From contig CAXTYC010000028.1 of NCBI GenBank assembly GCA_964248365.1, forward strand, positions 8,470 to 72,469: a DNA stretch of 64,000 nt. Reading direction: 5' to 3'. This document shows positions 25,996-56,561 of the stretch, in pieces. A model generated the notes under the pieces. The model made no database searches and was not told where the DNA came from. It was given only the letters and a program-made list of their open reading frames with translations. The number at the start of each line of letters is the position of its first letter. Within the stretch, counting starts at the first letter, position 1. Made by a program: the position numbers and the translations under genes. The DNA is from an uncultured Chroococcidiopsis sp. GTDB lineage: Bacteria > Cyanobacteriota > Cyanobacteriia > Cyanobacteriales > Chroococcidiopsidaceae.

Positions 25996-26001
25996 CAGGA
26001 A

Positions 26002-27233: not shown

Positions 27234-27442
27234 ACTCTACTGCCACTTATTTTCACTAATCTCCTGAGACTAAAATGTGGTAACAGCAAAAGTCAAGCTA
27301 AATTATTGAAAGTATTTCTTTTCTTAACGAACTCAAAAAAACTACCTAATGCTTGTCTAGTCACACTTTCAGAGCAAAAATTTTTTCTATACATCTTGAA
27401 GTGAGTTGTGATAAACTGCTTGAGATTGATTTCCATTGGTAA

Positions 27443-27462
27443 TACTTCTCTATTGAGAAGTA
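27443..27462. promoter_or_regulatory. Palindrome in the tonB/exbB divergent promoter, possibly a Fur-type site
   Basis: Perfect 8-bp inverted repeat TACTTCTC-tatt-GAGAAGTA in an AT-rich region. Confidence 0.4.
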
Positions 27463-27531
27463 ATATCACTTGAATAGCCGAGTTAGCTAGGAAACTGGCT
27501 GTGCCTAATTTGATTATTCTTGAACAAGTAC

Positions 27532-28185
27532 ATGAGAATTAATAATGTGTTTACAGCAGGCGGCGTAGTTATGTTTCCCCTGCTGGGGTTTTCAATATTG
27601 GCGATCGCGCTAATTGTCGAGCGTGTAACATTTTGGGTGCGGATTACTAAACGACAGCGCCGAGTTGTGCGAGAAGTGTTAAATCTCTATCGGCATGATA
27701 ACGTCGTATCAGCTATAGATTTGCTCAAACACAATGCAGATTTGCCAATGGCAAGAATTTTTTTAGCAGCTTTAGAACTTGAGCAACCTAACCCAGAAGA
27801 ATTTCGCCTCGCCTTAGAAAGTGAAGCACAAGCCGAAATTCCATTACTTAAAAGATTTAACAACATTTTTGAGACAATTATTAGCCTTGCACCCCTGTTG
27901 GGTTTACTTGGTACTGTTTTGGGATTGATTGCATCCTTTGCCTCTCTCGATATCGGGGATGTGGGAGGTAGCAAAACAGCTAGTGTTACATCTGGAATTA
28001 GTGAAGCTCTAGTTTCAACAGCATCAGGCTTGGTGGTTGCTATCTTTACGCTTTTATTTGCAAATACATTTCGGGGATTATACATCCGCCAAATTGCACA
28101 GATTCAAGAATACGGTGGTCAGCTAGAATTACTCTACCGCCGTCGCTATGAACGAGGGGAAAAAACTTATGCGTCTACCAGATGA
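27532..28185 (+). CDS. exbB: ExbB/TolQ proton-channel protein
   Basis: GGVVMFPL, APLLGLLGTVLGLI, GISEALVSTASGL. Confidence 0.93.
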   Translation: MRINNVFTAGGVVMFPLLGFSILAIALIVERVTFWVRITKRQRRVVREVLNLYRHDNVVSAIDLLKHNADLPMARIFLAALELEQPNPEEFRLALESEAQAEIPLLKRFNNIFETIISLAPLLGLLGTVLGLIASFASLDIGDVGGSKTASVTSGISEALVSTASGLVVAIFTLLFANTFRGLYIRQIAQIQEYGGQLELLYRRRYERGEKTYASTR

Positions 28186-28573
28186 ACCGGATATTCCAGC
28201 GCAGATCAACATCGTGCCGATGATCGATGTCATCTTCGCAATTTTGACCTTTTTTATCATGTCAACGCTGTTTCTGACTCGTTCTGAGGGGCTGTCAGTC
28301 AATTTACCCCAAGCTTCCTCAGCAAAAGCTCAGCCGGCAGCTCCAATTACAATTACGATAGATGCCCAAGGAAAACTAGCATTAAATCGAAAGTCAATTC
28401 AACTCCAAGCGCTAGATGGTGAAGTACGGCAGATGATTAAGCCAAATCAGGAAGCGTTGGTAGTTTTGAATGCAGATAAGTCTGTAACTCATGGTCAAGT
28501 GGTGAGTGTAATGGATATATTACGACAAGTACCAGGAGCAAAGTTGGCGATCGCCACGCAGAGGATTCGTTAA
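28169..28573 (+). CDS. exbD: ExbD/TolR protein
   Basis: INIVPMIDVIF, VNLPQA, NADKSV; overlaps the exbB stop. Confidence 0.93.
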   Translation: MRLPDEPDIPAQINIVPMIDVIFAILTFFIMSTLFLTRSEGLSVNLPQASSAKAQPAAPITITIDAQGKLALNRKSIQLQALDGEVRQMIKPNQEALVVLNADKSVTHGQVVSVMDILRQVPGAKLAIATQRIR

Positions 28574-28785: not shown

Positions 28786-29634
28786 TTAAGAATGAAATGG
28801 TACAGTTGCTAAAGGTAGGAATGCCAAGAGCAACCATAGTAATGACCACTTTAGTTGAGGCTGGGTGGTTGGTTCAGGGGAAGTTAGTAGGGCTTCGATG
28901 CGTTCTGTAAAGCGATCGCTTTGAGCAATGGCACTGAACGCAGCACAGAAGCTTGTCATCGGCATGATTGAAGAACGCACTACTAACACTAGAGACTCTG
29001 CCAACACTAGCGGATCTACTTGTTGTGCTGCCCAAGCGTCAGCTCGTATTTCCCGTAAAAGTAAGAGTTCTTGCCATAAGGCTTCTGTATTCGGCAACCA
29101 AGCGGTACAATTGCGTATCCAGCCAAGCCAGAAAAACCAGAAGGTATCTCGGTAATAGTAATGTGCTTGTTCATGGGCAATGACGGCTGATAATTGCTCT
29201 GGTCGGAGTGTGTGCAACAAACCGAGGCTGACAACTAATTCTGGCTGCCAAAAACCAACTAATGCACTAAATAGGGCGTTCGTTTCCAGCACTCGACTGT
29301 TTCTATCACCCAGATTTTGCACAGGGTATGTACGGGTTTTTTGTACAGAACGCCATCCCTCCCAGGCAAGTTTCAATCCTAAAAAGCCAACTATTGCAAA
29401 CAAAAACCAAGTTAGCCAGTAGCTAAATCGTCCGACTTGCAACCCGATCATGGTTCCCTGGGTTCCCATGCAAAGCACTGCCAAGCCTGTGATGAATAGT
29501 AGCAGTGGCGGGAACAGAAAGAAAAATAGCGATCGCCCCCAACGCCGATTCCAATTATCTTTAGTATCCGCACACCAGCTTTGTCGTACAGCGATTGCCA
29601 TTGTCAATGCAGCCAAAATCATGAATAAATGCAT
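28786..29634 (-). CDS. petP: BlaR1/M56-like membrane metalloprotease, probable PetP copper-responsive protease
   Basis: N-terminal MH, TM helices with PPLL and LCMG, HEQAH, REIRAD, C-terminal PFH; coupled to the upstream BlaI-family gene. Confidence 0.85.
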   Translation of the reverse strand: MHLFMILAALTMAIAVRQSWCADTKDNWNRRWGRSLFFFLFPPLLLFITGLAVLCMGTQGTMIGLQVGRFSYWLTWFLFAIVGFLGLKLAWEGWRSVQKTRTYPVQNLGDRNSRVLETNALFSALVGFWQPELVVSLGLLHTLRPEQLSAVIAHEQAHYYYRDTFWFFWLGWIRNCTAWLPNTEALWQELLLLREIRADAWAAQQVDPLVLAESLVLVVRSSIMPMTSFCAAFSAIAQSDRFTERIEALLTSPEPTTQPQLKWSLLWLLLAFLPLATVPFHS

Positions 29635-30053
29635 TACTGTTCCTCCCTAGCGCGACGTGCGGCTTGAATTCGTTCGGCGATCGCTTCTAATTGTTCGCAG
29701 CTGGCATAATCAAGACTATCTGCAAATGCAGCTACCACATCTGGGTTGCCTACTGCTAAAAATTTGTGTAAATTTTCATGTGCAACGATCATCTGCGCCT
29801 GTTCTTTCGACACCAGTGGATGCCAATAAAAGGCACGTTCTTGTTTATCACACCTTAGCCAGCCTTTTTCAGTCAACCGACGTAGTACGGTAGTGACCGA
29901 GGTATAAGCTAATTCTCGATTGGGATCGGTGAGAATGCGATCGTGTACGTCCTTGACAGTGACAGAACCGAGTTCCCAGACTATATGCAAAATCTCTGTT
30001 TCTAGTGGACCTAAAGACAGTTGTTTAGGACGGTAATCAGGCAGAGGAGCCAT
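29634..30053 (-). CDS. petR: BlaI/MecI/CopY-family regulator, probable PetR
   Basis: LGPLETEILHIVW, LAYTSVTTVLRRLTEKGWL; paired with a protease and close to petJ. Confidence 0.85.
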   Translation of the reverse strand: MAPLPDYRPKQLSLGPLETEILHIVWELGSVTVKDVHDRILTDPNRELAYTSVTTVLRRLTEKGWLRCDKQERAFYWHPLVSKEQAQMIVAHENLHKFLAVGNPDVVAAFADSLDYASCEQLEAIAERIQAARRAREEQ

Positions 30054-30098: not shown

Positions 30099-32201
30099 TC
30101 AAGTTTCTATTAGCTTTTGTACTTGATTAATCAACTCTGTCATCGGAAAAAGATATTTTCCGATTTCTGGATGGTCTTTTAAATTTTTCAAAACACGAGA
30201 GTTATCTGGAATAAAAAAGATGTGTTTGTAAGATACAAGTTCAGTTTTTTTTTCACTTAAATCAGAATCTTCACTTATTACCCACAAAATATTGCTAATT
30301 TTATGTTGATTGTAAAATTCATCTTCTGTCGTATAAGTCTGCTTCCATCTTTCACGCAAAGTTCTTTTTAAAGTTACTCCTATATACCATCCACTTTTCG
30401 TTTCAACCCAGTTATCTATTTCTAGCCCTGCCGTAAGCATAGGTTTTCCACCTGTTTTAATCCCAAAATAATTAAAAATGAATTCAATACTATTTTCTAA
30501 AGCTCTGCCTGCTCTAGTTTTTCTTTTTTGTGCAACTCTTTTTTCATACTCTTGGCATAATGCTGTTAATACAACATCCAAATCACTTTCACATATATTT
30601 TCATCAAAAATATTTAATCTTGCTCCCAAGTTTTCTTTTACACTTCTATATATTTCAACGATTAAATCTCGTTCTTTATTAATAGCCAGCATTCCTGTAA
30701 AATCATCCCACTCTCTAATCAATGTCACTAAACCTTGCTCTTTTTTTGTATCAAGTATAGCTTTCGCATACTTTTTAACAAAGTCATTGGTTTCAGTTAC
30801 TGGCACTTTTTCTAGTGCTGCATTAGTAGGGATCATTAATTCTTTTATTGCTATTGCAAAAATCAAATAATCTTTAGGAGTTATTAAAATTTTTTCTAAA
30901 TCTATTAACAATTTTTCATATTCAAGTCTAATCCTACTATCTTCTACTAATTGCTCGAACAACGATTGCTCAAAAACAGAACGTAAAATTTTTAGTTGAT
31001 TTTCTACTGTTTCTTCTCTTAAAGATGTAAGCTTATAGGTGGTTGTTAAAGTATTGTAGATTGTTTCAATGCGTTTAGTATCTTTTCCTAATTGTTTAGC
31101 GCCGCTTCTAATTATGTAGCGCAAATACCAGTAACATTTCTCCCAAACTGTTAAGTTAGTTACTGTTTTAAATCCTGCCTGTTGTAGTTCTTCTGGTCGA
31201 TATGTCATGGTATCAAGTTTTTCCAAAATGTTTGCTGCTATTTTAACTACCACAGGTACAGCAACACCATTACCAAACTGCCTGTAAGCAGCAGCAGCAC
31301 TTTCAGGCAGTATAAATTCTTCAGGGAAACCTTGTAATCTTGCACACTCACGGGGTGTCAACATTCTAGGGTTTTTACCTTCTTGTACAATTAAACATTC
31401 TTTTCCATCTTTGTAGTATCTTGAAACTAAAGTATTAGATGGTTTGTCCAAATTTGCTAATTGTACAACAAATCCAACTCCTCTTTCTTTATTTCTTTCT
31501 GAGCGTTTTTGATGTCCTGCCCACAGCTTGTCAGATATGGTAAATTTATCTGATACAGTTTCTTCTAGTATTGACCTTAAAGGTATCGCCACGCCTTGAA
31601 TATCTGGAAACTCATAATTTAAATTTTCTCTAAAACAAACCATGTAAAATCTCTCTCGTCTTTGAGGAACAAGAGAGCTAGAGTCTATAATTTTGCAATG
31701 TAACGAATAATTTAATTTATTTTCAATAAGTTCTTTAACTATATTGAATGTTTTTCCTTTGTCGTGAGAAGGAAAATTTTTCACGTTTTCTAATAGTAAT
31801 ACTTTCGGTCTTTTTACCTGCGCTATTCTGATAATATCAAAAAATAGATTTCCCTGCTCCAAATCATCAAAACCATGATTTTGACCCAGATAATTCCTGG
31901 CTGATACTCCGGCTAGACTAAAAGGTTGACAAGGAAACCCAGCAGTTAATAAATCATGTGAGGGAATAAGCTGGTCTAGTTGTTCATCTGATATTTCTAT
32001 TTTTGTAAATTCTTTAATATCTCCACTCGGACATTCACCAAAGTTTGTTTTATAGGTTCTTCTCGCTGTTGCATCAATTTCTGACGAGAATACACACTTT
32101 CCGCCAAGTGCTTGTAAAGCTATCCTAAAGCCTCCTATTCCGGCAAATAAATCTATGAATGTAAACTTTGGTTTTTCTGGTGGTGGGAATGGAATATTCA
32201 T
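30099..32201 (-). CDS. Fused C5-cytosine DNA methyltransferase plus EcoRII-C/SsoII-like restriction endonuclease
   Basis: N-half: DLFAGIGG, GFPCQPFS, ENV, QRRER, TPRECARLQGFP, QFGNGV. C-half (from MTYRPEE at 31208): RKTRAGRALE, EID, KRTLRERWKQ. No stop between the halves; visibly AT-rich. Confidence 0.88.
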   Translation of the reverse strand: MNIPFPPPEKPKFTFIDLFAGIGGFRIALQALGGKCVFSSEIDATARRTYKTNFGECPSGDIKEFTKIEISDEQLDQLIPSHDLLTAGFPCQPFSLAGVSARNYLGQNHGFDDLEQGNLFFDIIRIAQVKRPKVLLLENVKNFPSHDKGKTFNIVKELIENKLNYSLHCKIIDSSSLVPQRRERFYMVCFRENLNYEFPDIQGVAIPLRSILEETVSDKFTISDKLWAGHQKRSERNKERGVGFVVQLANLDKPSNTLVSRYYKDGKECLIVQEGKNPRMLTPRECARLQGFPEEFILPESAAAAYRQFGNGVAVPVVVKIAANILEKLDTMTYRPEELQQAGFKTVTNLTVWEKCYWYLRYIIRSGAKQLGKDTKRIETIYNTLTTTYKLTSLREETVENQLKILRSVFEQSLFEQLVEDSRIRLEYEKLLIDLEKILITPKDYLIFAIAIKELMIPTNAALEKVPVTETNDFVKKYAKAILDTKKEQGLVTLIREWDDFTGMLAINKERDLIVEIYRSVKENLGARLNIFDENICESDLDVVLTALCQEYEKRVAQKRKTRAGRALENSIEFIFNYFGIKTGGKPMLTAGLEIDNWVETKSGWYIGVTLKRTLRERWKQTYTTEDEFYNQHKISNILWVISEDSDLSEKKTELVSYKHIFFIPDNSRVLKNLKDHPEIGKYLFPMTELINQVQKLIET

Positions 32202-33750: not shown

Positions 33751-35466
33751 TCAGCTTATCTTTGTTGCAGCTTTGATACATTCAGCTTTGAGGAGAACTA
33801 AATTATCAGTCTTTATAACAGCACAAGCATCCATTAATGTCGATAAGATAGGGGGATTCTGTAAGTTATTAATCGCTTGTTGTGCTGCTGGCTGATATTG
33901 TTGCAACCAGTTATTATTAACTATATATTCAGACGTAAATGCAGAACGTTCTAACAACCAATAAGTAATGCGGTGTTTTTGGATGAAATCTTTAAGTTGG
34001 TTAATATTATGACTATATTGAGTGTTAATTAAATCAAGCATTCGCTGCTTGAATTGAGCGTAATATTTGGTATGGAAGGGTAAAGCGAATTCTTTACCTA
34101 CCAAAACCGACCTGTTCGCAAAGATGGGAATGTTATCTGCTTCTTCAGAAGTGGATGCAATGACAATATCTTGCGGTTGTTGCAGTAAAAACTCATACAA
34201 TACAGGTACAGTACCCGTTACATAGGGAGTTTTGGGGAAAGATTTTAAAGTGCTAGGGTAAAAAATTAGCACAACACCAATAATACCTGCGCACCCGAAA
34301 GCGACAAATTGCCTTTTATTCGCTTTCGACCATTGCACTACAGCATCCACAATTACAGTCAGCGCGATCGCACTAGCTAAAGCAAGTACCATCTTAAAGG
34401 TATGATGGGTGTACCGACTAGGCCAATGTAGCTTAAATGCGACGGCATGAGCAGTAAAAAACATCGTTAAACACGCTATTACTACCTGTGGCAAAATTTT
34501 GATATTATCTTTTACCTGCTTAACTAGGGGAAAGCGAGACGGGAACTTGAGGATAATTGGTAATAAAAAGCCGATTAATAGTTGCAAAGGTGCAATTAAT
34601 GCCAAACAACCGCTATCTCTACCATCTAGCCAAAAACTAATAGTATTATGAGTAAAGTAACTGACTCTGCCTCCATGCCAATACTCTGGCATAGTTCGAG
34701 CGGAGGCAGCAGTAATTGTTGGTCCGAATTGACCCGCTTGAATTGCATAAGGTAAAATTATTGCACCACAAATAATCACCGCAGCAGCGAATAGTCGAAA
34801 ATCTTTGCGGTTTTGAGCAAAGCTGATTCTTCGATTATGTAAGCTAAATAACCTCAGAAATAAAATTAATAAATCTACGAAAGCTATTAAAGGATATATT
34901 AAAGCTTGGAGTGCGATCGCACTCAATGTACCTAACCAAGAATTTCGTAATAAATAATATATAAATGCCAAAAATAGCGGATAAATAAAATCTCTAGGAG
35001 TGGCAGAAAATAAATCATCGTGCAAACCAAGACTTTGGTTCAAAAGTAAGGTAGCCATAAATCCTGCCATTGGTACTGCGAGTATCTGCATACAGACTAC
35101 AAAGCAATAGCTAGTTGTAATCGTTCCCACCACTATTGGGAAAATTTTGCTAAACGAAATCGGGTCGATGCCAAGAAAAGTAGTTATTTTATAAATAAGA
35201 CTATACCCAATTGGTGTAACTGACTGAAAATAATCAGCAATCAAATCATTTGGAAATAAATTTTTGTTGAAGTAGCGATATACCCAAGGGAGATATTCTC
35301 GTGCATCATCGCTAACTACATACTTACTACTAAAACCTTGCCGCATTCCGATGACAATGTAAGTAATCGCAAAAGCTAGGCTTAAGCTGTACCAAAAAAT
35401 CACAGCTGACCGAGATTTATTTTGTTGATTTTCTTGATTAATTGGTATTGTCGAAAATACTTGCAT
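33751..35466 (-). CDS. Polytopic membrane protein, possibly a GT-C-fold glycosyltransferase
   Basis: Many hydrophobic helices, an acidic DD motif after TM1 (VSDDARE) and a soluble C-terminal domain. Confidence 0.6.
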   Translation of the reverse strand: MQVFSTIPINQENQQNKSRSAVIFWYSLSLAFAITYIVIGMRQGFSSKYVVSDDAREYLPWVYRYFNKNLFPNDLIADYFQSVTPIGYSLIYKITTFLGIDPISFSKIFPIVVGTITTSYCFVVCMQILAVPMAGFMATLLLNQSLGLHDDLFSATPRDFIYPLFLAFIYYLLRNSWLGTLSAIALQALIYPLIAFVDLLILFLRLFSLHNRRISFAQNRKDFRLFAAAVIICGAIILPYAIQAGQFGPTITAASARTMPEYWHGGRVSYFTHNTISFWLDGRDSGCLALIAPLQLLIGFLLPIILKFPSRFPLVKQVKDNIKILPQVVIACLTMFFTAHAVAFKLHWPSRYTHHTFKMVLALASAIALTVIVDAVVQWSKANKRQFVAFGCAGIIGVVLIFYPSTLKSFPKTPYVTGTVPVLYEFLLQQPQDIVIASTSEEADNIPIFANRSVLVGKEFALPFHTKYYAQFKQRMLDLINTQYSHNINQLKDFIQKHRITYWLLERSAFTSEYIVNNNWLQQYQPAAQQAINNLQNPPILSTLMDACAVIKTDNLVLLKAECIKAATKIS

Positions 35467-35962
35467 TTGGCTCTTACAGTAAAAACATAAGCCCACTTTA
35501 CTATATTTGGTGTTGGTTATTACCTAACGAACCGCAAAATATAAAAGTTTGTAACTACTCAGGTTGCAGAGGAAGAAAAACAGGGACTTCCATAAAAACT
35601 TGCAAGCTGTAAAAAATCCGTTGATGCCAGGCTGAGCCTGGAAATGAAGCATTTTCTACTCGCACTCAGGCTTAGCCCACAAGGCATAGGGCGCTCTGCT
35701 CCCTACCGTTTGCATACTCATAGGCATTACCAACCTTTCTGATTAAATACCACAGAATTAACTCCTAAATTCTTAAAGATTTTAAGTATTTCTTAAGTGA
35801 TATTACTGATGACCCAAGTTAGCATGGCTAGGCTAACTTAGTACAAATAAATTCAGCCTTTGCAAGTTTCAAATCCCCATTTGAAGGGAAAGAAACTTTG
35901 CTATAAAGCTTGAATTATCTTCATCAATTCAGCAATTCATTTATAACTCATCTGTCTTTTCT

Positions 35963-37093
35963 GTGGCACTTCCAACAGTTACTCCAGGTCAATCACTTAG
36001 CCCTCAACAAAAAACGGGTTTAAATCTAGTTACTCATTTACACAAAGGACGTGATGTTGTATTAGCAATTGACCTGACCGAGAGTGTAGGAATAAACAGC
36101 GAAGGTCGCATCCGCCTACGTCAGATTATAGAAGATAGCTTAAAGCCTGGGGATTCAGTATATGTTGTTCCTTTTGCATCTGATGTAAGTTCACTTGAGA
36201 GCGTATCAGATTCAAATCCATTGGGAACCCCGATCAATTTTGGTAGCAAAAGTCAAGACAATATTGAAAAAATTTTACAAAAAATACCACAATCAGCCGA
36301 TTTAAAGCTGCAAAATACAGATATTCAACGAGCAGAGTTAACCGTTTATCAAGGTGTAGCTCAACTGAATCAAAATCGTCTGCAACAAAATCAACCAATC
36401 AAGCCACAATCAATTGTTTGGATTACTGATGCGCCACTTTTAGCTAATTCAGGTAAAGAGTGGATTGAAACTCCAGCTAATAGCCCTTTTAGAGTAAAAG
36501 ATTCTCCAGAAAGTCAAGCTCGTCAGGCTTGGCTGAAAACTTTACCGTTGCATAAACGAGAGTTATTAATTAAGAATAACCATAAAGAATACAAAATTGC
36601 TGTTGTTGATATAGATCCAACCGTTCAAGAGTTTTGCACTATAGCACCCAGCGGTCAGGAAATTTGTAAAGTAAATTCTTACTTATTTGGGCAGTTATGG
36701 TTCCCTACATTAATATTATCTCTTGGATTAGCTTTTATCCCATTTTTACTGTGGTATTTGATTAGTCTTCGCAAAAAATGGCGGATTATAGTAACTTCTG
36801 ATTTTAACGAAGATGAAAAAGAATGCCGTCCTCTACTACCTGGTAAATGTTACGCCATTGGTGCGGCAGACTCTAGGTGTGTAGATGAAATTGAGTGTCC
36901 TGGTTCAGAAGTAAGAGCTTATCTAGAACGTAGAGGCAATCAACTTTATTTAGTGCCTACTATATTAGCACCAATTCACTGGAATGGTAAAGAACTTATT
37001 AAGCGGACTCGCTTAACTGGTAATCGAATAAAACTGAATTGCCCCGACGAAAAAAGTGGTGATTTCTATATCGACCTCAAACTTAAGAAATAA
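35963..37093 (+). CDS. vWA-domain protein with one TM helix and a small C-terminal beta-rich (FHA-like) domain
   Basis: DVVLAIDLTES (MIDAS-like), VVPFA, NTDI, VWITDA; TM LWFPTLILSLGLAFIPFLLWYL; C-terminal AIG...WNG pattern. Confidence 0.8.
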   Translation: MALPTVTPGQSLSPQQKTGLNLVTHLHKGRDVVLAIDLTESVGINSEGRIRLRQIIEDSLKPGDSVYVVPFASDVSSLESVSDSNPLGTPINFGSKSQDNIEKILQKIPQSADLKLQNTDIQRAELTVYQGVAQLNQNRLQQNQPIKPQSIVWITDAPLLANSGKEWIETPANSPFRVKDSPESQARQAWLKTLPLHKRELLIKNNHKEYKIAVVDIDPTVQEFCTIAPSGQEICKVNSYLFGQLWFPTLILSLGLAFIPFLLWYLISLRKKWRIIVTSDFNEDEKECRPLLPGKCYAIGAADSRCVDEIECPGSEVRAYLERRGNQLYLVPTILAPIHWNGKELIKRTRLTGNRIKLNCPDEKSGDFYIDLKLKK

Positions 37094-37113
37094 CTTTATA
37101 ACGAAGGTAAATT

Positions 37114-40100
37114 ATGTACAATCAATCTTCGGCAAATGAAAGACAGTATCAGGGAATCAACCGTACTATTTGCATCGGCTTAGGAGGTACAGGTAGAGAT
37201 GTATTAATGCGAATTCGTCGTCTAATTGTAGACCAATACAAAGATTTGAGTAACTTACCCGTTGTTAGCTTTGTTCATATTGATACTGACAAAGAAGCAA
37301 CTCAATCTGTTAGTTTGCGTACAGGTAACATCTATCAAGGTGTTGACTTGGGATTTCAAGATGCAGAAAAAGTCAACGCTACAATGACGGCGCAGCAAGT
37401 TTCTGAGTTAGTTCAAGGACTAGAGCAATGTCGTTCTAACCGTCTTCAACCCAGTCCTTACGAACATATTGCTCAGTGGTTCCCGCCACAGCTTTTACGC
37501 AATGTCAGAGCAATAGATCAAGGTGCACAAGGTATTAGACCTGTAGGTAGATTAGCCTTCTTTCACAACTATCTGAAAATTAAGCAAGCTATTGAAATCG
37601 CAGAACAGCGGACAAGAGGACATGAGCAAGATTTACTGCGAAATTTTGGTTTAATTGTTGACCCAGGATTGAATATTGTTGTTGTAGGTTCTCTGTGCGG
37701 TGGTACAGGTAGTGGCACATTTTTAGACATAGCTTATAGTCTTAGATATGCCTACCCTGATGTCAAACAACTTCTCGGTTATTTAGTTATTAGTCCTGAG
37801 TTATATGGTAACACTCCTAATATGTGTGCCAATACTTACGCTGCTTTGATGGAACTTGACTATTATTCTAGCCCTGGTACAGAGTTTAAGGCTTGCTATA
37901 ACCAGCAATATCTCACAGTTGTACAAGAAAAACGTCCTCCTTTTGACTATACTTATTTAGTTTCTAAATCTACTGAGCAGGGTAATTATGTTATTGATAA
38001 ACAGCGAAAGCTTTGTAATGTAATTGCTCATAAGATTGCTCTAGATTTTTCGAGCGAATTGGCTCCCATTGTCAAGGGAATGAGAGATAATTTTGCTCAA
38101 CATCTAATTCAGGAAGACGATCATCCTCGTCCTAATAGCCAAGGGTATCTAACATTTGGGTTAGCTGCTATTTATTTTCCACGCGATCGCATTTCCCAAA
38201 TCACAGTAGCACGGATTAATTCAAAACTAGTTAATTTCTGGCTGATGGGAGAAGGACAAAGCCCAGATCCTGTTAAATTGCTAGATCAATTTCTAATTGA
38301 ATATCGCTGGCACAGTAATTTAGACAAAAAAGATGGTCTAATTACGAAACTAGAAGCAACAACCCTAGAATCAGAAAAAAATTTCACTAACTTAATGAAT
38401 GCTTGGAAAACTAAGCAAGAAAATAAAATTAGTGAATGCAAAAATAAAGACGATCGCTCTAGTTTGCTCCGACAACTACAAAGAGATTTCAAAGAGCAAT
38501 TTTATAAGATTAAATTTGGAGAAACAGAAAGTAACAGAGGAATTTGGTTAACCAAGCTAATTAAGAGTCGTGCAAATTTAGCTTTGCAACTGCGGCAAGA
38601 TATTGATAGTTACTTATCTGGTATACTTACACCCAGTAACCAACACTTTTCTATTGCCAACGTTCGTAACTGGCTAGATACTCTTCAGACAGAGTTGAAT
38701 ACCTATCAATATGATTTAGAAGAAAAAATCAGAGGATTGAATAATTCCAGAAACCTGGAAGAACTAGAGAAGAAATGGGAACAGACAAACAAAACTATTC
38801 AAGACATTGAGGAAGAATTTAACTTACCAGTATTCAGTAATAAAAACAGTCGTGTACAAGATGAAGCAAGAAAGGTAGCTAAAGAGACTGAAAATGCTAT
38901 TAAACATAACTTTAATCTGGCTGTAGCACTTGAAGCTCTAGAAATCGTTAAGGTTTTACAACAGCACACGCAAATAAGAGCTAGTCAGTCAACCAACTTA
39001 TATCGCCTAGTAGATGACTTAAAAAGTCACTATGAGAAAATGCAAGCTGCGCTCAAACAATCAAATTCTGACGAAATGAGCGGCGAGGAAATCTTTTCTG
39101 ATGAAGACCTTGATATTTGTTACAATGCTTTGTTGCCACAAAAAGAATACCGCTCTCAGGTTGTACAAATTACTCAGAAAATCTTAGAACCAATAGGAGT
39201 CGGACAATCTTTAGCAATTCTTTTAGATCAAAGTCTCACAAATACCGAACAGCTTAAACACGAAATTGACTCTACAGTTAACCATTTATTTGGTTCTCGT
39301 AGTGCTGATATTGTACAATCTGTAATCAAGCGCTTCACCCACAAATATCCGTCTTCAGAACGTGCAGTTCGGTTAGGACAAATTCTCCGCGAAGCTCAAC
39401 CGCTTCTACCGCTTAACTTAACTGCTCCATACTTTCACAATAATTCTGCTAAACAAAGTAAGCTGGTGGGTTTCAAAGTTACTGATGAGCCTGAAGTTAA
39501 ACAATTCAATACTGTTTTAACAGACAAATTGGCAATTCCAGATAACGTACTCAAGCCTACTCAAGCAGAGGATAAAGTTGTAATTGTCAGTGAATATGCT
39601 GCTTTTCCACTTAGATTAATTGATGGTTTGCAGCAGTTGAAAGATCATTACTACCTGCAAAGAAAACATTCGGCTAATGCTCCACTGCATAACGAGCGCC
39701 GCGACGACATATTTACAGACATTATTCCACCAGATGTATCAGTCATGCAGGATTTACAGGATATTTTCTATCCTTGTCTTGCTTTTGAATTAATTCAACA
39801 GAACCAGGAAACACAGCAACTAGAGTTTCAATATTTTGATGAATTCCGAGGTGTTTACAAAACAGATTCTCTTAGTCCAACTTGGAAACAAGGCCTTCAA
39901 GAATTGGTTAATAATTCTAACATGAGAGTGGCTCTCCAGCAATTACTTGATAGAGCCATTACAGACATAGAAAATCAACGGACAAAATGGCAGGGATACT
40001 ACTTGCCTAAACTCCAAAAATTTGTTGATCAGGTTGATAATTTGCCAGATGACGATATTAATTATCCTTACCGTTTTATGGTAGTTGGTTCACGGGGAAC

Positions 40101-40392
40101 TGATGACACTTCTGCTAAAGAAGGAGTTATTAACCGCTTTTATACACGAATGCAACAGCGAGTTAAAGCTTTACCAGAGCAAAATAAAGTTTTACCAGCA
40201 AGTACCCCAAGTCAAAAAGTTCTCACTGGCGAAGTAGTTGACGATTATGCAACAGATTCTGGTGACAATAGAACACGACGGCGGGTAGAACTGGAAAGGC
40301 TAAAACAGGATGTTGATGATGGCATTATTACCCAAGAAGAGTATGAATACGAACGCCAGGAAATCCTGAATAAATATCCTTTGCGGAGATAA
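37114..40392 (+). CDS. Large tubulin/FtsZ-like GTPase (Tubulin_2/FtsZl1 type) with a long helical region and SHOCT-like tail
   Basis: IGLGGTG, HIDTD, GAQGIRPVGRLAF, GSLCGGTGSG, NTYAALMEL; C-terminus ELERLKQDVDDGIITQEEYEYERQEIL. Confidence 0.9.
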   Translation: MYNQSSANERQYQGINRTICIGLGGTGRDVLMRIRRLIVDQYKDLSNLPVVSFVHIDTDKEATQSVSLRTGNIYQGVDLGFQDAEKVNATMTAQQVSELVQGLEQCRSNRLQPSPYEHIAQWFPPQLLRNVRAIDQGAQGIRPVGRLAFFHNYLKIKQAIEIAEQRTRGHEQDLLRNFGLIVDPGLNIVVVGSLCGGTGSGTFLDIAYSLRYAYPDVKQLLGYLVISPELYGNTPNMCANTYAALMELDYYSSPGTEFKACYNQQYLTVVQEKRPPFDYTYLVSKSTEQGNYVIDKQRKLCNVIAHKIALDFSSELAPIVKGMRDNFAQHLIQEDDHPRPNSQGYLTFGLAAIYFPRDRISQITVARINSKLVNFWLMGEGQSPDPVKLLDQFLIEYRWHSNLDKKDGLITKLEATTLESEKNFTNLMNAWKTKQENKISECKNKDDRSSLLRQLQRDFKEQFYKIKFGETESNRGIWLTKLIKSRANLALQLRQDIDSYLSGILTPSNQHFSIANVRNWLDTLQTELNTYQYDLEEKIRGLNNSRNLEELEKKWEQTNKTIQDIEEEFNLPVFSNKNSRVQDEARKVAKETENAIKHNFNLAVALEALEIVKVLQQHTQIRASQSTNLYRLVDDLKSHYEKMQAALKQSNSDEMSGEEIFSDEDLDICYNALLPQKEYRSQVVQITQKILEPIGVGQSLAILLDQSLTNTEQLKHEIDSTVNHLFGSRSADIVQSVIKRFTHKYPSSERAVRLGQILREAQPLLPLNLTAPYFHNNSAKQSKLVGFKVTDEPEVKQFNTVLTDKLAIPDNVLKPTQAEDKVVIVSEYAAFPLRLIDGLQQLKDHYYLQRKHSANAPLHNERRDDIFTDIIPPDVSVMQDLQDIFYPCLAFELIQQNQETQQLEFQYFDEFRGVYKTDSLSPTWKQGLQELVNNSNMRVALQQLLDRAITDIENQRTKWQGYYLPKLQKFVDQVDNLPDDDINYPYRFMVVGSRGTDDTSAKEGVINRFYTRMQQRVKALPEQNKVLPASTPSQKVLTGEVVDDYATDSGDNRTRRRVELERLKQDVDDGIITQEEYEYERQEILNKYPLRR

Positions 40393-40460
40393 GTATTTAG
40401 TGTTTTTTTAGGTGGGCAATGCCCACCCTACGGATTTATCTAATTTGAGATTAAAAGTTT

Positions 40461-42041
40461 ATGGATATTTCACTTGCGAAATTTATAGCTTTATTGCCAC
40501 CGTATTTAGTTATTCTTATTTTTGTATTGGTAATTTTACCATCTTTAGCAACTATTTGTTTACGCTTTGCTCTATATAAGCGTCTTGTTTTTTTAGAAAA
40601 GCGTGTCAGAAGACTAATTAATCGGGGAGAGCGAGGTAAGCAGCCAGAAATTATTGAAGAATTGGAAAGAAGGTTCAAGGAAGCTAGCAGCAACTTAGAT
40701 CATGTTAATACAGCAGCATTAATAGAGCAAGTTTATAGCCGCGAGAAGGTTTTGTTTTTTTCTTGTGAACAAATTGATTACTTCTGCCGTAATCTACCTA
40801 ATTTGCTAATAGCTTTTGGTTTGTTAGGAACTTTTATAGGTATTACAGTAAATTTGACTTCCTTGAGTCAATCAATTAGTCAAACTAATAGTAACGATGT
40901 TACCAGTTTAGTGCGCGAACTACAGGAACCTTTAAAAGGTATGGGTATTGCCTTTACTACTAGCTTGACTGGTATATTCTGTAGTGCTTCATTAACAATA
41001 TTTAATTTAATTTTCAATACCAATGTAACTAAGTATAAGCTGATTAGTGCTATTGAAGATTATCTAGATAATATTTATTTACCGAAAGTTCAAGGAAATA
41101 ATCGCTTAGATAAAGCTGTCGATCGCTTAGTATTTGAATTTAAAGATTTTTTGGGCAGATTTGGTACTACTGTACGCGATGCGGTAGAGTCATCGCTAGG
41201 GGCAAAAATTCAACAAATTGTTGATGTCAATAAACAAGCAACTGATCTAGCTCGTCAAGTTTACACTGGATTTCAAGAATCTTCAGGCACAATATCTAGT
41301 TCTGCTAGTGAATTCAAATATGCTATTTCTACTTTTGAGAATGCTGTAGCGGCGATGATTGCCAATACTGAGAAATATCAACAAGTGGCTAACTTATTTG
41401 AAAATAGTCAATTTCCTGAAAAATTATCAAAGGCTACAGACAAATTAGCTGATATACAGAATAGGTTTTCTCAGTCTGCTTTTAGTTTAGCTAACACGGC
41501 TGAATCTATCGAAACGGCAGTAATTGAAACTAGAAGCTCTAGTCAAAATATCACAAAGTTAGCAGAAGAAATCAGCAATATTAATCAAACCTCGATTCAA
41601 GTACTGGAGTTACATCAAAGCAGCCAGCAGTCTCTTGGTGAAATCATTCCACAACTGAAGGAAGGAGCGCAGAGTTTCCAATTAGCTGTTACCAAGCTTG
41701 ATAAGCTAGAAAAACGAATTGCAGATAAACCCGATAGTTGGAGTGATGTACAAGTTGAGTTGGCGCAGTTGGTGGAGACTCTGAAAAATTATACAGAGCA
41801 GGTAAATTTGGGGATTGAGAACGTAGGCGATCGCTTTGTAGAAAGTATTAGCAATCACACAGATAATAATAAACATCATCTTCTAGCTATTGAACAAAAT
41901 CTTGAGCAATGTATTAATTCTTTACTTGATACCAAATATGAAAATCGCTGGATGACACAATTAATAGAAAAACAGGAAGATACAAATAAATCTAGTAAGT
42001 CTGAGTTAAATAATTTATTTAATGGATTAACTAAACAATAA
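40461..42041 (+). CDS. ZorA-like MotA/TolQ/ExbB channel subunit with a long cytoplasmic helical tail
   Basis: TM1 near the N-terminus, LPNLLIAFGLLGTFIGI, GMGIAFTTSLTGI, then more than 300 aa of heptad-like tail. Confidence 0.8.
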   Translation: MDISLAKFIALLPPYLVILIFVLVILPSLATICLRFALYKRLVFLEKRVRRLINRGERGKQPEIIEELERRFKEASSNLDHVNTAALIEQVYSREKVLFFSCEQIDYFCRNLPNLLIAFGLLGTFIGITVNLTSLSQSISQTNSNDVTSLVRELQEPLKGMGIAFTTSLTGIFCSASLTIFNLIFNTNVTKYKLISAIEDYLDNIYLPKVQGNNRLDKAVDRLVFEFKDFLGRFGTTVRDAVESSLGAKIQQIVDVNKQATDLARQVYTGFQESSGTISSSASEFKYAISTFENAVAAMIANTEKYQQVANLFENSQFPEKLSKATDKLADIQNRFSQSAFSLANTAESIETAVIETRSSSQNITKLAEEISNINQTSIQVLELHQSSQQSLGEIIPQLKEGAQSFQLAVTKLDKLEKRIADKPDSWSDVQVELAQLVETLKNYTEQVNLGIENVGDRFVESISNHTDNNKHHLLAIEQNLEQCINSLLDTKYENRWMTQLIEKQEDTNKSSKSELNNLFNGLTKQ

Positions 42042-42099
42042 CTTCTAAAGAGGAACCGGAGTTTTCTAAGCCTCATAAATACTATTTGAGCTTTTTATT

Positions 42100-42894
42100 A
42101 TGCGTCATCGTTCACGATATGTTGAGTCGAATGAAGACTTAAATATTTGGTCTGCTTTTACAGATTTAATGTCTAATGCTTTCATGATAGCAATCTTATT
42201 TTTATTACTAATGATCGTTAAATCTGTAGTTGCACAATCAACATTAGACAAAACTCTTAATAGTCTAGGTAATAGAAAAGATGAAGTGGGAACATTGGCT
42301 AGACAGGTTAAAGTTTTACAAGCGAAAGCAAATAGAACTGATGAATTAGAGCGTCAAGTTGCAGTTTTACAAAAACAGCTATCAGGACAAAGAGAAACAG
42401 GCGCACCACCGATTATTGTGATTGAAGATGAACAAGCCTATCGATTTGCTTCAGGTAGTGCAGAAATTCCGCCGCCAATGAAGACTTATATCAAAAATAA
42501 GATAGTACCTGAAATTGAACGCAATACGCAGCAATATCATATCAATGTGGTAGAGTTAATTGGTCACACTGACGGTCAGGCTAATGGCAGTGCAGCTAGT
42601 AATCTAGACGAGAATTTGGAGAAAGTAGCGATCGCTCAAAATCCTGTTAGTAATCTGCATTCAGGCTCTAACGCAGATTTGGGACTGATGCGAGCGTTGG
42701 CAGTGGTAAGATTACTGCGTGACATCCAGACGAAAACTGGACATCTAAAAGGGCTGAAATTTCGAGCCTATTCTGCTGCACAGCTAATTTTACCAAATGG
42801 AGAGTTTGCCTCTGTTAGTCGTCATCCAGATGCAACCAGGCGACGGATAGAAATTCGTTTTACTCGTTTGGGTGAGGTGACAAGGGTTAGATAG
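42100..42894 (+). CDS. ZorB/MotB-like subunit with an OmpA-type peptidoglycan-binding domain
   Basis: NIWSAFTDLMS (conserved TM Asp), coiled coil, FASGSAEI, IGHTD, SNADLGLMRA, RRIEIRF. Confidence 0.85.
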   Translation: MRHRSRYVESNEDLNIWSAFTDLMSNAFMIAILFLLLMIVKSVVAQSTLDKTLNSLGNRKDEVGTLARQVKVLQAKANRTDELERQVAVLQKQLSGQRETGAPPIIVIEDEQAYRFASGSAEIPPPMKTYIKNKIVPEIERNTQQYHINVVELIGHTDGQANGSAASNLDENLEKVAIAQNPVSNLHSGSNADLGLMRALAVVRLLRDIQTKTGHLKGLKFRAYSAAQLILPNGEFASVSRHPDATRRRIEIRFTRLGEVTRVR

Positions 42895-43947: not shown

Positions 43948-45558
43948 TCAACTTAACTGCGCTACGACTTGATCTTGTAGCAAGGCTTGGTTTGTTAGCA
44001 AGTCTTCTACTGTCATGCGTAAAAAGCGCTGTTTGTCAACTTGAAACAATACTCTAATGCGATCGCTCCCTGGATAACCAGGCGGTGTCAAAGAGGCGAT
44101 CGTTCTTGCACCTTCACGATCATTGAGTGGCTGCACTTGTTTTTTCCCGCTATCTAGACGCTTGGTGATTAGGCGATCGCCATCAAAATACACTTCTGTA
44201 CCACCAGTTTCCGCCCCCAATTCGCCGATGATTAATTCAATACTGGGCTGCTGATCCACCGATGCGCCTAAAACTAATTCTACAGGCGTATCCATTGGGT
44301 AAGGCTGTCCTTCTTTAATCAAAGGATGCCAGTTATGACAATTATTTCGCCTATCCCAGTAGCGGATACCGTAACTGTGGTAGAGAAAATCTTTCAGTTC
44401 CACACCTTGAGATATTTGCAACGCACCAAGGGCGATCGCTTCAAACGGACGTTCGCAACGAATTTTTTCAGGCTCAAAATACTGCTGTACCCATGTCTGC
44501 ACAGCTGGCATTTGTGCTGTACCACCAACCAACAACACAGCCTTAATATCTGTATTTTCTAATCCTTGTCGCCGTGCTTGTTGCAATAGCTGATTCATCG
44601 ACTGATCTAGCTGCTCAAAAAACGAGTGTTCGGCGAGAATTTTTTCTAACTGATCGCGGTCTAATTCCAGTTCGTAGCTTTCAAATGTCTCATCATTAAA
44701 GTAAACTTCATTTGCCCCAGTTTGGGAAGATAACTGAATCTTTAACCGTTCTGCTAGTCGAGTAGTCAAAGGAGTTGCCGCCAATCCTTGTCTAGTGGCA
44801 AAATAATCAACAATCCAGTTATCAATATCAGAACCACCTAAATTCTGCCCTGCTTTTGCTAATACACGGGCTGTTTTTACCTTCTGTCCTGATTTTTCCG
44901 CCAGGGATTTTTTACCCCATTTAAGTAGAAACCCAGGCTGCTTCTTAGTCGCACCACCATCGAGCCGCACTAGAGAAAGATCGAGTGTACCGCCGCCGAA
45001 ATCAATTACTAGCAAAATGTCCTGTTCTACCATCCCATATCCCAAAGCAGCAGCTGTCGGCTCATCCAAAAGCCGCACCTGTTCTACTGGTAGCGATTGG
45101 CACACTTGCCCAAGCCAGAGACGGTAAGCCTCAAAGCTGTCTACTGGTACAGTCAAGATCAAAGATTCAGTAGGCGAGGTTGCAAGTTTGTCAATGATTT
45201 GGCTGAGGAACCATTGCCCGACTTGTTCAAACGAGACAATTTGCCCGTCTAGCTCTGGCAAGAAGCCTTGAATATCTGCACCAATTCCTCTTTTGAAGCT
45301 GCGAAAAAATCGCGGATCTGTGGTTAAATCAAGCCCGCGATCGCGTACAGCCTGTCCTACTACTACCTTATTTTGTGCCGCATCTTCTACATATACCAAA
45401 CTAGGGATCAGGGGAGGATTCTGCCCCAATTGCTCAGATAAACCAGGTAAACTTAGGGTTTCTGGTTGCTGGGTAACAGGGTTCCAACGGGCTATACAAG
45501 TGTTGCTAGTACCGAAGTCAATTGCGTAGGATGAAGTCCTTGTCGTAGACATCGCCAT
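43948..45558 (-). CDS. Hsp70-family (DnaK-like) protein
   Basis: AIDFGTSNT, DEPTAAALGY, IDFGGGTLD, LGGSDID, LLVGG. Confidence 0.92.
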   Translation of the reverse strand: MAMSTTRTSSYAIDFGTSNTCIARWNPVTQQPETLSLPGLSEQLGQNPPLIPSLVYVEDAAQNKVVVGQAVRDRGLDLTTDPRFFRSFKRGIGADIQGFLPELDGQIVSFEQVGQWFLSQIIDKLATSPTESLILTVPVDSFEAYRLWLGQVCQSLPVEQVRLLDEPTAAALGYGMVEQDILLVIDFGGGTLDLSLVRLDGGATKKQPGFLLKWGKKSLAEKSGQKVKTARVLAKAGQNLGGSDIDNWIVDYFATRQGLAATPLTTRLAERLKIQLSSQTGANEVYFNDETFESYELELDRDQLEKILAEHSFFEQLDQSMNQLLQQARRQGLENTDIKAVLLVGGTAQMPAVQTWVQQYFEPEKIRCERPFEAIALGALQISQGVELKDFLYHSYGIRYWDRRNNCHNWHPLIKEGQPYPMDTPVELVLGASVDQQPSIELIIGELGAETGGTEVYFDGDRLITKRLDSGKKQVQPLNDREGARTIASLTPPGYPGSDRIRVLFQVDKQRFLRMTVEDLLTNQALLQDQVVAQLS

Positions 45559-45804
45559 GAATAGTAAAGTCAACAGTCTTTGTAACTTAATGTTATCTTT
45601 ACCAGCGGTCTATACTATTTTAGATTTTGGAGCCATAGATTTTGGATTGGAAAATCCAACTATAGCAATCCTATTTAACGAACCGCAAAGGCGCAAAGAA
45701 CGCGAAGTGAAGAAGTAGAGGGAGGTTTACAAATCCTGCACGGAATGCTATATCAGGAGTTTTAGCAACATTTGTAGCAGTCAGAAAACCTTATGGTATA
45801 ATAT

Positions 45805-55811: not shown

Positions 55812-56561
55812 CTATTCAATTGTCCAATTTGCTGGTGGTAGCGGCATCTGTTCTTCGAGTTGAGAAGATTGGGAAACTTGTTGCATACTAGCTGAAAGCC
55901 AGATAAACAACTCCTTAAAATTCAGCCCTCCCAGTTTTAGCGGCTGACGTACAACTATTTGACTTAGGCGAGTCATGTTTGCTTCTTCCACCCCTATAGC
56001 AAAGAAGGCAACACGCTTATTAGCTTCGTCGTCTTTAATACGTTTTGTTGCCTGCTCTACCACACTATCTGCTTCTCCTTGTGGTTCGCCATCGGTAATC
56101 AAAAATACCCAAGGGCGATAGTAGGCAACTCCATTAGCACGATACATGGCTTTGCGGACTTCGAGCAGATCAAGCCCTTGGAGAATTGCTCCCCCCATTT
56201 GAGTCAAACCCTCAGCCGAAAGAGTTGGCGGCTCAAACTCATCGGCTGTTGTAAAGCCCTGAACTACCTCTACTTCAGTGTTAAAAGTTACAATTGCTAC
56301 CTCGACTCGCTTTTTTGCCAGATTGTCATGATTTAGTTCCTCCTTAAAGGTACGTAAACCATCATTTAAGGCGTTAATTGCTTCACCTTGCATCGAGCCA
56401 GAAGTGTCTAGTAGCAAAACACATGGGCAACGCGGCTCTGGGTTTTCGGCAAATTCAACCGCCTCTTCCCAGCTCAATGGTTCAGGTTCTGCTGTGTCAT
56501 TGTCAATACCACTATCAGTAGATTTTGATTGCAGCGATCGCGGATTCCAAAACTTCATCAA
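55812..56561 (-). CDS. TerY/YegL-like vWA protein
   Basis: ENPEPRCPCVLLLDTSGSM, YYRPWVFLITDGEP, FIWLSASM. Confidence 0.9.
   Translation of the reverse strand: MMKFWNPRSLQSKSTDSGIDNDTAEPEPLSWEEAVEFAENPEPRCPCVLLLDTSGSMQGEAINALNDGLRTFKEELNHDNLAKKRVEVAIVTFNTEVEVVQGFTTADEFEPPTLSAEGLTQMGGAILQGLDLLEVRKAMYRANGVAYYRPWVFLITDGEPQGEADSVVEQATKRIKDDEANKRVAFFAIGVEEANMTRLSQIVVRQPLKLGGLNFKELFIWLSASMQQVSQSSQLEEQMPLPPANWTIE

Follow-up and report, generated by a model that had tools for sequence, protein, structure and literature searches.

A cyanobacterial FtsZl1 operon encodes a ZorAB-like motor pair beside a predicted tubulin-superfamily GTPase

Results

The four-gene cluster

We analysed a stretch of 64,000 nucleotides from an uncultured Chroococcidiopsis sp. 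(assembly GCA_964248365.1, contig CAXTYC010000028.1, positions 8,470 to 72,469), here called the window, in which four co-directional open reading frames (ORFs), g1 to g4, occupy positions 35963-42894 of the forward strand (Table 1). The genes are separated by 20 (g1/g2), 68 (g2/g3) and 58 bp (g3/g4), and their GC fractions are 0.377, 0.378, 0.342 and 0.397, compared with about 0.44-0.47 in much of the window; the drop in GC begins near 30 kb, ahead of the cluster. A prediction made beforehand from the DNA sequence (the original prediction) had described them as AT-rich genes for a vWA (von Willebrand factor A) protein with a transmembrane (TM) helix and an FHA-like part, a tubulin-like protein, a MotA-like protein with a long tail and a MotB/OmpA-like protein with an aspartate in its TM helix, and had seen in them a Zorya-like ion motor within a candidate new defence or membrane-remodelling system. 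Its coordinates, spacers and motifs (GGTGSG and FTDLM) are all correct, and the four domain calls hold.

The cluster itself, however, is already known, and in this respect the original prediction does not stand. Makarova & Koonin 2010 (Biol Direct 5:33, PMC2875224) tabulate the same four-gene order as vWA-FtsZl1-'B7'-COG1360 in their Additional files 5 and 6 for Ava_1847-1850, where the products are a COG2304 vWA protein of 381 aa, FtsZl1 of 1085 aa, the B7 'membrane-associated protein' of 524 aa and a COG1360 'flagellar motor protein' of 215 aa. These tables list the identical order in Cyanothece PCC 8802 (Cyan8802_4287-4290) and Microcystis NIES-843 (MAE_58760-58800), and g3 is the family called B7 in Additional file 5. 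The g1-g4 cluster carries all four features of the cyanobacterial FtsZl1 operon and is one of these operons. What is new here is that B7 is ZorA-like, which we found in no paper.

Table 1. Features of the window discussed in the text (positions are those of the window; empty cells, no value given)
Feature	Position	Strand	Size	Description
g1	35963-37093	+	376 aa	vWA-TM-FHA-like membrane adaptor (putative)
g2	37114-40392	+	1092 aa	FtsZl1/Tubulin_2 (PF13809) GTPase (predicted)
g3	40461-42041	+	526 aa	ZorA-like MotA-superfamily subunit
g4	42100-42894	+	264 aa	ZorB/MotB-like anchor with OmpA-type domain
Upstream spacer of g1	35497-35962	+	466 bp	Presumed operon promoter region
GC-rich hairpin GGTGGG-CAATG-CCCACC	40411-40427	+		In the g2-g3 spacer; read from the sequence
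Ton cluster	22604-28573			Ordinary Ton cluster, includes AMIN-domain protein
TonB-dependent receptor	23742-24290, 24115-24720			Split in two ORFs
DDE transposase	24919-25638			Beside the split receptor
TonB	26002-26889	-		Ton cluster
ExbB	27520-28185			Ton cluster
ExbD	28148-28573			Ton cluster
BlaI-like repressor and M48/M56 peptidase	28786-30053	-		Gene pair
C5 cytosine methylase	30099-32201	-	700 aa	PF00145; weak EcoRII-C-like C-terminal part
p581	33751-35496	-	581 aa	Polytopic membrane protein of no family, divergent from g1
Hsp70/actin-fold gene	43948-45573	-	541 aa	About 1 kb past g4
Second vWA protein	55812-56561	-		PF00092; ordinary

The motor pair g3/g4

Zorya is understood as a rotary sensor that is anchored in the wall and brings in soluble effectors through its tail. 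Among the PADLOC models, 17 of the ZorA type match g3, 11 of them at E ≤ 1e-8 (best 2e-14), and ZorB1 matches g4 at 3.2e-9; as a control, ExbB (121 bits to PF01618) and ExbD of the same window gave no PADLOC match at 1e-8. When the whole genome was searched with the ZorA1 model, g3 alone was matched (45.6 bits), while PF01618 recovered two ExbB/TolQ genes (122 and 109 bits) and, below its cut-off of 22.9, g3 (17.8 bits). Over the Pfam searches g3 scores 16.9-17.8 bits, with E 0.0054 in that of the window. The only solved stator chains matched by the g3 sequence are those of EcZorA (8qyh, 2e-4). A profile of 24 g3 sequences retrieves EcZorA (8qyd_A, 1.1e-6) and the Shewanella type I ZorA (8vvn_C, 5.4e-6) from the PDB amid coiled-coil noise, and its best 60 matches include no MotA, ExbB or TolQ chain. 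The best PDB match of the g4 profile is the Shewanella ZorB (8vvn_B, 9.1e-8), followed by PomB, type II ZorB (8vvi_A, 1.1e-3), EcZorB (8qyd_F, 3.9e-3) and MotB, and 16 of the 30 nearest named Atlas clusters of g3 share the set 'ZorA-like_t1/MotA_ExbB'. Two g3 homologues carry a precomputed PF28082 (ZorA-like_t1) annotation. The PADLOC, genome-wide and PDB profile searches thus agree with the original prediction that the pair is closer to ZorAB than to ExbBD, TolQR or MotAB.

The term 'Zorya-like' is justified as a resemblance, by the PADLOC matches and the solved ZorAB chains, but not as membership, since the NCBIfam models ZorA_1 to ZorA_4 score 45.3, 43.6, 37.2 and 27.4 bits on g3 against cut-offs of 190, 100, 250 and 500. 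With PADLOC ZorA matches on the one hand and scores so far below the curated cut-offs on the other, g3 is a distant relative of ZorA and, as judged from these scores, g3/g4 resemble ZorAB without belonging to the curated Zorya families. The usual Zorya effectors were predicted to be absent, and indeed no PADLOC effector model (ZorC/D, ZorE, ZorF/G) matches g1, g2 or the neighbouring genes.

Three TM helices were found in g3, at about 8-37 (TM1), 112-135 (TM2, with LPNLLxxFGLLGTFxG) and about 160-185 (TM3), followed by a conserved 'LEDYLDN' motif at 198-204. The conserved residues are P113, L116, G120, L121, G123, T124, F125, G127 and N131 in TM2, and M161, A164, F165 and S168 in TM3. T124 is invariant in the 24 sequences and aligns to Thr147 of ZorA, a residue that the available part of Hu et al. 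(PMC11946911) assigns to the ion filter. After TM3 a helical tail of about 330 aa, with matches to SMC and coiled-coil proteins, runs to residue 526, and its length and sequence are highly variable among the orthologues. In two orthologues (L039 13321-15699; L056 12105-14426) the tail ends in an extra globular part, which presumably resembles a GUN4-type domain. The g4 protein has an N-terminal TM helix with FTDLM at 20-24 (in 'FTDLMS'), where T21, D22, L23 and S25 are conserved and D22 is invariant; a coiled linker leads on to an OmpA-type domain for peptidoglycan binding, whose motifs are conserved too (IGHTD 154-158, GSNADLGLMRA 189-199, RRRIEIRF 247-254).

The tubulin-superfamily protein g2

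The g2 protein belongs to FtsZl1/Tubulin_2, a family with 3936 representatives at E ≤ 1e-3, and matches PF13809 over residues 19-373 with 340.7 bits (1.5e-101; gathering cut-off 27). GGTGSG lies at 196-201. Among 60 family representatives of at most 50% identity, G24, G25, G27, G196-G199 and E247 are invariant, and E247 is likely, from this alignment, to be the T7-type catalytic residue. The full-length AlphaFold2 (AF2) model (predicted local distance difference test, pLDDT, 90.5; predicted TM-score, pTM, 0.80) has a tubulin domain from residue 13, helices at 424-650, of which one is formed by 577-649, an alpha/beta domain at 657-1018, a disordered linker at 1024-1049 and a helical hairpin at 1052-1087. 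We take the hairpin to be SHOCT-like and considered it as a tether to g1; of 23 orthologues with a full set of partners, however, 4 lack it, and the tether role was dropped.

With Foldseek the g2 model matches CetZ1 (1.4e-6), as well as tubulins, BtubA and FtsZ, over 345-400 alignment columns, and with VIA it matches CetZ 3zid_B at Z 24.5 (302 of 342 residues, root-mean-square deviation 3.8) and TubZ, tubulins, FtsZ and PhuZ at Z 17-24. On the evidence of the model, g2 is a complete tubulin-superfamily GTPase. The range aligned by VIA, of which only the first and last residues are given, runs from residue 15 to 855-875. As a lead, this suggests that the chain beyond the helical insertion contributes a portion of the tubulin fold, which would explain why Makarova & Koonin did not find the later tubulin elements. 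A complex prediction for two copies of g2 1-420 with GTP and Mg had a score of 0.00 and a mark of 0.42, and bears neither way on polymerisation.

The putative adaptor g1

The models of Pfam, NCBIfam and PADLOC all fail to match g1, and its sequence profile found nothing useful in the PDB. Its homologues carry the NCBI name 'VWA domain-containing protein', as does Ava_1847 (58% identical). In an alignment of 30 homologues D37xT39xS41 does not vary and conservation of T119 and D156 reaches at least 90%, a set of the metal ion-dependent adhesion site (MIDAS) type. The AF2 model (pLDDT 82.2, pTM 0.67) has three parts. Residues 28-216 form a vWA-like alpha/beta domain, for which VIA gives ITIH1 (6fpy, Z 8.0), CLCA1 (6pyo, Z 7.8), Cav alpha2delta and Rea1-MIDAS (6qta, Z 7.2); residues 244-270 form a single long TM helix, which coincides with the Kyte-Doolittle peak; and residues 271-376 form a beta-sandwich of the FHA fold (VIA Z 8-10; Foldseek E about 2e-4; TM-score 0.7 on the target). 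The Z values are middling by the tool's own notes, and the vWA call also uses the motif, while the FHA call uses about 30 concordant matches.

Conservation of the cluster

The distribution of the cluster was determined in 301 evenly drawn cyanobacterial genomes, with orthologues defined by E < 1e-100 and the tables for g2 and g3 compared by hand. Relatives of g3 occur in 48 genomes and of g2 in 52. A g2 orthologue is present in 35, and in 34 of these a g3 orthologue lies directly 3' on the same strand, G074 being the exception. A second scan, with one genome per species, returned 80 loci, 66 orthologous and 14 paralogous. The orthologous loci span many orders, with Nostocales, Microcoleaceae, Pleurocapsales, Microcystis, Chamaesiphon, Prochloron, Pseudanabaena and Thermosynechococcus. 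Where there was room on all sides, 53 of 57 show the unchanged order g1-g2-g3-g4 with all genes on one strand, as the original prediction expected, which indicates that the grouping of the four genes is more than chance. The median spacers in the orthologous loci are 19, 79 and 49.5 bp. The genes flanking the cluster are not conserved, not even in the sister genus (G011), where g2 is two ORFs; over all 66 loci, g2 is fragmented in six and g3 in two. The 14 paralogous Tubulin_2 loci (25-36% identity) have as partners vWA genes, periplasmic-binding-protein-like genes and a protein kinase, and none has a stator.

In a FastTree phylogeny of g2 with 75 rows, a quick tree with local supports only from which six rows with a best ORF shorter than 900 aa were excluded, the orthologues form a clade of 62 rows (SH-like support 100). 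Branching inside this clade follows cyanobacterial taxonomy: the heterocystous forms are one clade of 31 rows, and Pseudanabaena and Thermosynechococcus are basal. The g2 phylogeny looks largely vertical in this tree, which is unusual for a mobile defence system and weakens the expectation that the cluster is one.

Defence context

Enrichment in defence islands, another expectation of the original prediction, was not found. Within 5 kb of the cluster at 14 loci (two of 16 were dropped as near-duplicates), 19 of 113 proteins encoded by ORFs of at least 100 aa have a PADLOC match at E ≤ 1e-8, compared with 17 of 115 in 16 random 10-kb regions of the window's own genome; the test is a crude one, its control comes from one genome, and single-model matches were counted, not system calls. 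There is also no g2 orthologue on 72,556 plasmids, where the eight matches are paralogues of at most 34% identity. Both results argue against a defence role. Viral contigs yielded one distant g2 relative only.

The surroundings of the plasmid paralogues are of a different kind. On three Thermaceae megaplasmids (L113, L114 and L115) co-directional genes encode a vWA protein, a Tubulin_2 protein, a protein of about 680 aa that we could not assign and a BrxL-like Lon protease. In Meiothermus taiwanensis this vWA-tubulin-BrxL cassette is preceded by HmaC (PADLOC E = 0) and PDC-S01, and in Allomeiothermus silvanus it lies between two IS701 copies. The cassette looks like a defence-island module in its own right. 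The cluster of Deinococcus sp. QL22 adjoins an AAA ATPase and a DUF2357/PD-(D/E)xK pair, and the paralogues on Nostoc punctiforme and Azospirillum plasmids adjoin caspase or CHAT genes. These neighbourhoods are suggestive, but they are anecdotes on paralogues and not on the g1-g4 cluster.

Surroundings of the cluster in the window

Scans for consensus promoters and terminators gave no more sites than shuffled sequence, and none in the 466-bp spacer 5' of g1. The sequence of the g2-g3 spacer, which holds the hairpin of Table 1, is not the same in a relative's contig. Only three sequencing runs contain about 9% of the sampled words, and the contigs of relatives in them are 90-99% alike over much of g1-g4. 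One of these runs is recorded as a metatranscriptome; DNA carry-over is possible and the contigs have no transcript ends, and it was not counted as expression.

The Ton cluster lies a few kb upstream of g1. The C5 methylase (PF00145, 3.1e-78; EcoRII-C-like part, E 3.7e-4) lies in the stretch of lowest GC in the window (0.32). The BlaI-like repressor and peptidase pair is located 6 kb upstream of the cluster, and a BlaI/BlaR1 pair lies directly 3' of a paralogous tubulin gene in Capsulimonas (L081 8325-10406), which is probably a coincidence. The second vWA protein (2.5e-12) is not related to the g1-g4 cluster.

Two neighbours were considered as further partners and rejected. A close homologue of p581 (E 4.9e-158; L079 6410-8227) lies just 5' of a paralogous Tubulin_2 gene in Laspinema, amid Uma2 genes, which made p581 a candidate for a hidden GTPase partner, but p581 is a polytopic membrane protein; the position of the homologue may reflect a shared insertion site. 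The Hsp70/actin-fold gene was considered because tubulin-like genes of other lineages have Hsp70 as a companion (Kaur 2020; table of Makarova & Koonin), and its homologues are near only three of the fetched loci.

Discussion

A proposed membrane machine

We propose, as the reading that we favour on balance, that the four genes encode one inner-membrane machine, with a vWA/FHA adaptor that links a ZorAB-type motor to a tubulin-superfamily GTPase. The 'B7' and COG1360 genes would provide the ZorAB-type stator, with g3 and g4 forming, by homology, a peptidoglycan-anchored and ion-driven 5:2 motor. D22 of g4 would act as the ion-relay residue, T124 of g3 would lie on the ion path, and the tail of the g3 pentamer would reach into the cytoplasm. 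The g1 protein may serve as the membrane adaptor and would bring a vWA site for metal-dependent binding together with an FHA-like module. In response to an envelope change, g4 could engage the wall and ions could flow, whereupon the g3 tail would turn and pass the signal to g1 and g2, and the GTP-dependent assembly state of g2, perhaps a filament, would be switched at the membrane.

Several points weigh against this proposal. The unity of the operon and the coupling of motor and GTPase are proposed from gene order and homology, contact between any two of the proteins is a prediction, and filament formation by g2 and contact of the motor tail with g1 and g2 are suppositions of the model. In 4 of the 57 loci with room the set of four genes is incomplete. 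An Aphanothece metagenome-assembled genome (L003) has the second-closest g2 orthologue (67%), and g1, g3 and g4 are not detectable in its 18-kb locus. In G074, g1-g2 are in one place and a lone g3-like gene is elsewhere (L109 6653-8476), and a further g3-g4 pair (47% and 45% identical) lies alone amid housekeeping genes in G274 (L111 7994-10590), next to the one in its cluster. In a few genomes, then, g1-g2 and g3(-g4) occur separately, and the modules can exist apart. Against the curated NCBIfam ZorA and ZorB models, g3 and g4 reach 17-45 bits, with cut-offs of 100-500 (one of them 17 against 400). The canonical phosphothreonine-binding motifs of FHA domains, which we take to be GR, SxxH and NG, were not seen by eye in g1, and g1 has no signal peptide, yet its positive RKKWR comes after the TM helix, so that the signs of its topology conflict.

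We place the role of the machine in an accessory, envelope-linked response, and a role against phages or in other conflicts can be put forward only tentatively; a non-immune role of g1-g4 in the membrane or in cell organisation is about as likely as the conflict role. That the cluster stands for a new class of envelope surveillance, ancient in Cyanobacteria and recurring in Deinococcota, in which the output of a Zorya-type motor is the GTP-dependent assembly of a membrane-tethered tubulin-superfamily protein and not a nuclease, is a speculation that we regard as rather doubtful.

The alternative that fares best, although we would not give it even chances, follows Makarova & Koonin and takes the cluster as a non-immune system, in which membranes are remodelled or the envelope is organised by a tubulin-like cytoskeletal element that is tethered to the membrane and powered or positioned by a wall-anchored ion motor. 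It is consistent with an orthologue clade that is deep in Cyanobacteria and follows their taxonomy, a pattern also noted in the accessible part of their paper (PMC2875224), with the constant make-up of the cluster, its presence in both unicellular and filamentous forms, and the lack of defence enrichment in its flanks. Other 5:2 motors, moreover, serve gliding, Tol-Pal and Ton functions, according to the available text of a 2025 study (PMC12204202). However, the cluster was not found in 266 of the 301 sampled genomes and is often broken, so it cannot have a core function, the nearest characterised motor is immune, and at the level of the family the plasmid neighbours resemble conflict genes.

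Slightly less probable, in our estimate, is a true Zorya-type anti-phage system, in which g1 and g2 would replace ZorC/D, ZorE or ZorF/G, so that the motor is set going by envelope damage from a phage, and infection is then blocked, or the cell killed, by a tubulin-like polymer. Among long-tailed relatives of g3/g4, the anti-phage ZorAB alone have been characterised, and the accessory distribution of the cluster, the fragmented g2 genes, a GC content below that of the surroundings, and the proximity of the C5 methylase with its EcoRII-C-like part and of a Uma2 nuclease in the window all fit such a system. The plasmid Tubulin_2 paralogues lie beside BrxL in three of eight records, beside HmaC and PDC-S01 in one, beside an McrBC-like pair in one and beside caspase or CHAT genes in two, and tubulin and vWA genes are predicted to form conflict systems in the accessible part of Kaur et al. 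2020 (PMC7159879). Against this reading stand the flanks, which have no PADLOC excess, the largely vertical tree, the chromosomal location of the orthologues and a four-gene make-up that is fixed and free of effector swapping; no nuclease or other toxic domain was found, and no PADLOC model matches g1 or g2.

It is improbable that the vWA/FtsZl1 pair g1-g2 and an orphan stator g3-g4 are independent modules, adjacent by chance. The split arrangements in G074 and G274, and the FtsZl1 paralogues, most of which have a vWA partner and no stator, would be explained in this way, but not the adjacency, with very short spacers, in nearly all genomes and loci, across lineages in which g2 is only 30-40% identical, nor the recurrence of the pairing in Deinococcus. 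Least probable of all, and already disfavoured, is an ordinary ExbBD/TolQR or MotAB pair, for which the weak PF01618 match of g3 could be cited, but this match is under the Pfam cut-off and far below the scores of the genome's true ExbB/TolQ genes (109-122 bits), the partner of g3 is of the OmpA and not the ExbD type, and the g3 profile favours ZorA chains.

Should the speculative new class of envelope surveillance prove real, a 5:2 motor would be linked mechanochemically, and directly, to a cytoskeletal GTPase. A motor wired to a tubulin-like GTPase would give a concrete hypothesis for the function of FtsZl1 and widen the range of what 5:2 motors drive. The cluster is present in genetically tractable cyanobacteria, for example Trichormus variabilis (Ava_1847-1850), and D22 of g4, T124 of g3, GGTGSG and E247 of g2, and D37 of g1 offer clear point mutants.

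Comparison with known systems

In the accessible text and additional files of Makarova & Koonin (PMC2875224) membrane remodelling was proposed for the FtsZl1 operon. The word 'MotA' is absent from the main text, and B7 was not recognised as MotA/ZorA-type, whereas g3 is ZorA-like. Those authors took the OmpA-like partner as a beta-barrel outer-membrane protein, whereas g4 resembles the ZorB/MotB anchor, and they questioned whether the later elements of the tubulin fold exist in FtsZl1; the g2 model, in contrast, matches whole CetZ/tubulin chains. We found no description of a tubulin/ZorAB pairing in a literature search that took in neither the supplements to the Zorya papers nor those on bioRxiv, and no experimental study of an FtsZl1/Tubulin_2 member turned up. 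The terms 'tubulin' and 'FtsZ' do not occur in the accessible portions of the Zorya structure papers or of the 2025 survey of MotAB relatives (PMC11946911, PMC11890865, PMC12505986), and a 2023 FtsZ/tubulin phylogeny has Tubulin_2 proteins as a divergent outgroup only.

As in the Zorya ZorAB, as far as the available parts of Hu et al. 2024 (PMC11946911) and Mariano et al. 2025 (PMC11890865) describe it, g3 has three TM helices and a long helical cytoplasmic tail, with a Thr at the position of ZorA Thr147, and g4 has a TM Asp, D22, corresponding to Asp26 of ZorB, and an OmpA-type wall-binding domain; among the known families, ZorAB are the best matches by hidden Markov model and in the PDB. In contrast to Zorya, the g3 tail has about 330 aa and not about 500 as in EcZorA, and the partner genes are upstream and encode a vWA-TM-FHA protein and a tubulin-like GTPase instead of ZorC/D, ZorE or ZorF/G, with no nuclease. 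The ExbBD, TolQR and MotAB families are more distant, since g3 is below the PF01618 cut-off and g4 is not of the ExbD type. The vWA force transducers described in 2025 (PMC12204202) share with this cluster a gene for a vWA membrane protein beside a 5:2-type motor, but in the accessible text their motor is TolQ-like, their vWA protein is a periplasmic TolA/TonB-like or TolR-like partner, and they have no tubulin-like gene.

Kaur, Burroughs, Iyer & Aravind 2020 (PMC7159879) predict that tubulin and vWA genes of Firmicutes and Actinobacteria form conflict systems. The tubulin/vWA arm of these systems, as described in the available part of that paper, resembles g1-g2 in having a tubulin-superfamily protein with a coiled-coil or helical extension and a membrane vWA protein. 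Unlike these systems, the g1-g4 cluster has no DO-GTPase, GAP1 or FNIII component, and the same part of the paper has no stator. No P-loop GTPase gene was found by Pfam in or beside g1-g4, and the absence of GAP1 is judged from there being no extra gene inside the cluster.

A related arrangement outside Cyanobacteria is that of Deinococcus (DR_0538-DR_0536 and the plasmid of Deinococcus sp. QL22). Here the upstream partners are two proteins without known family and not a vWA-FHA protein, an LRV-repeat protein is encoded 3', and the MotA-like protein is shorter (403-411 aa) than g3 (526 aa). Like the g1-g4 cluster, however, the Deinococcus cluster has a gene for a Tubulin_2 protein of about 1070 aa, then directly a ZorA-like MotA-family gene with a helical tail, and then an OmpA-domain gene. 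On the QL22 plasmid a MotA-like gene of 403 aa (ZorA1 1e-8; PF01618 21.1 bits), whose product is 38% identical to g3 over TM2-TM3, comes after the Tubulin_2 gene (230 bits), and the OmpA gene (64 bits; ZorB1 9.4e-6) is next.

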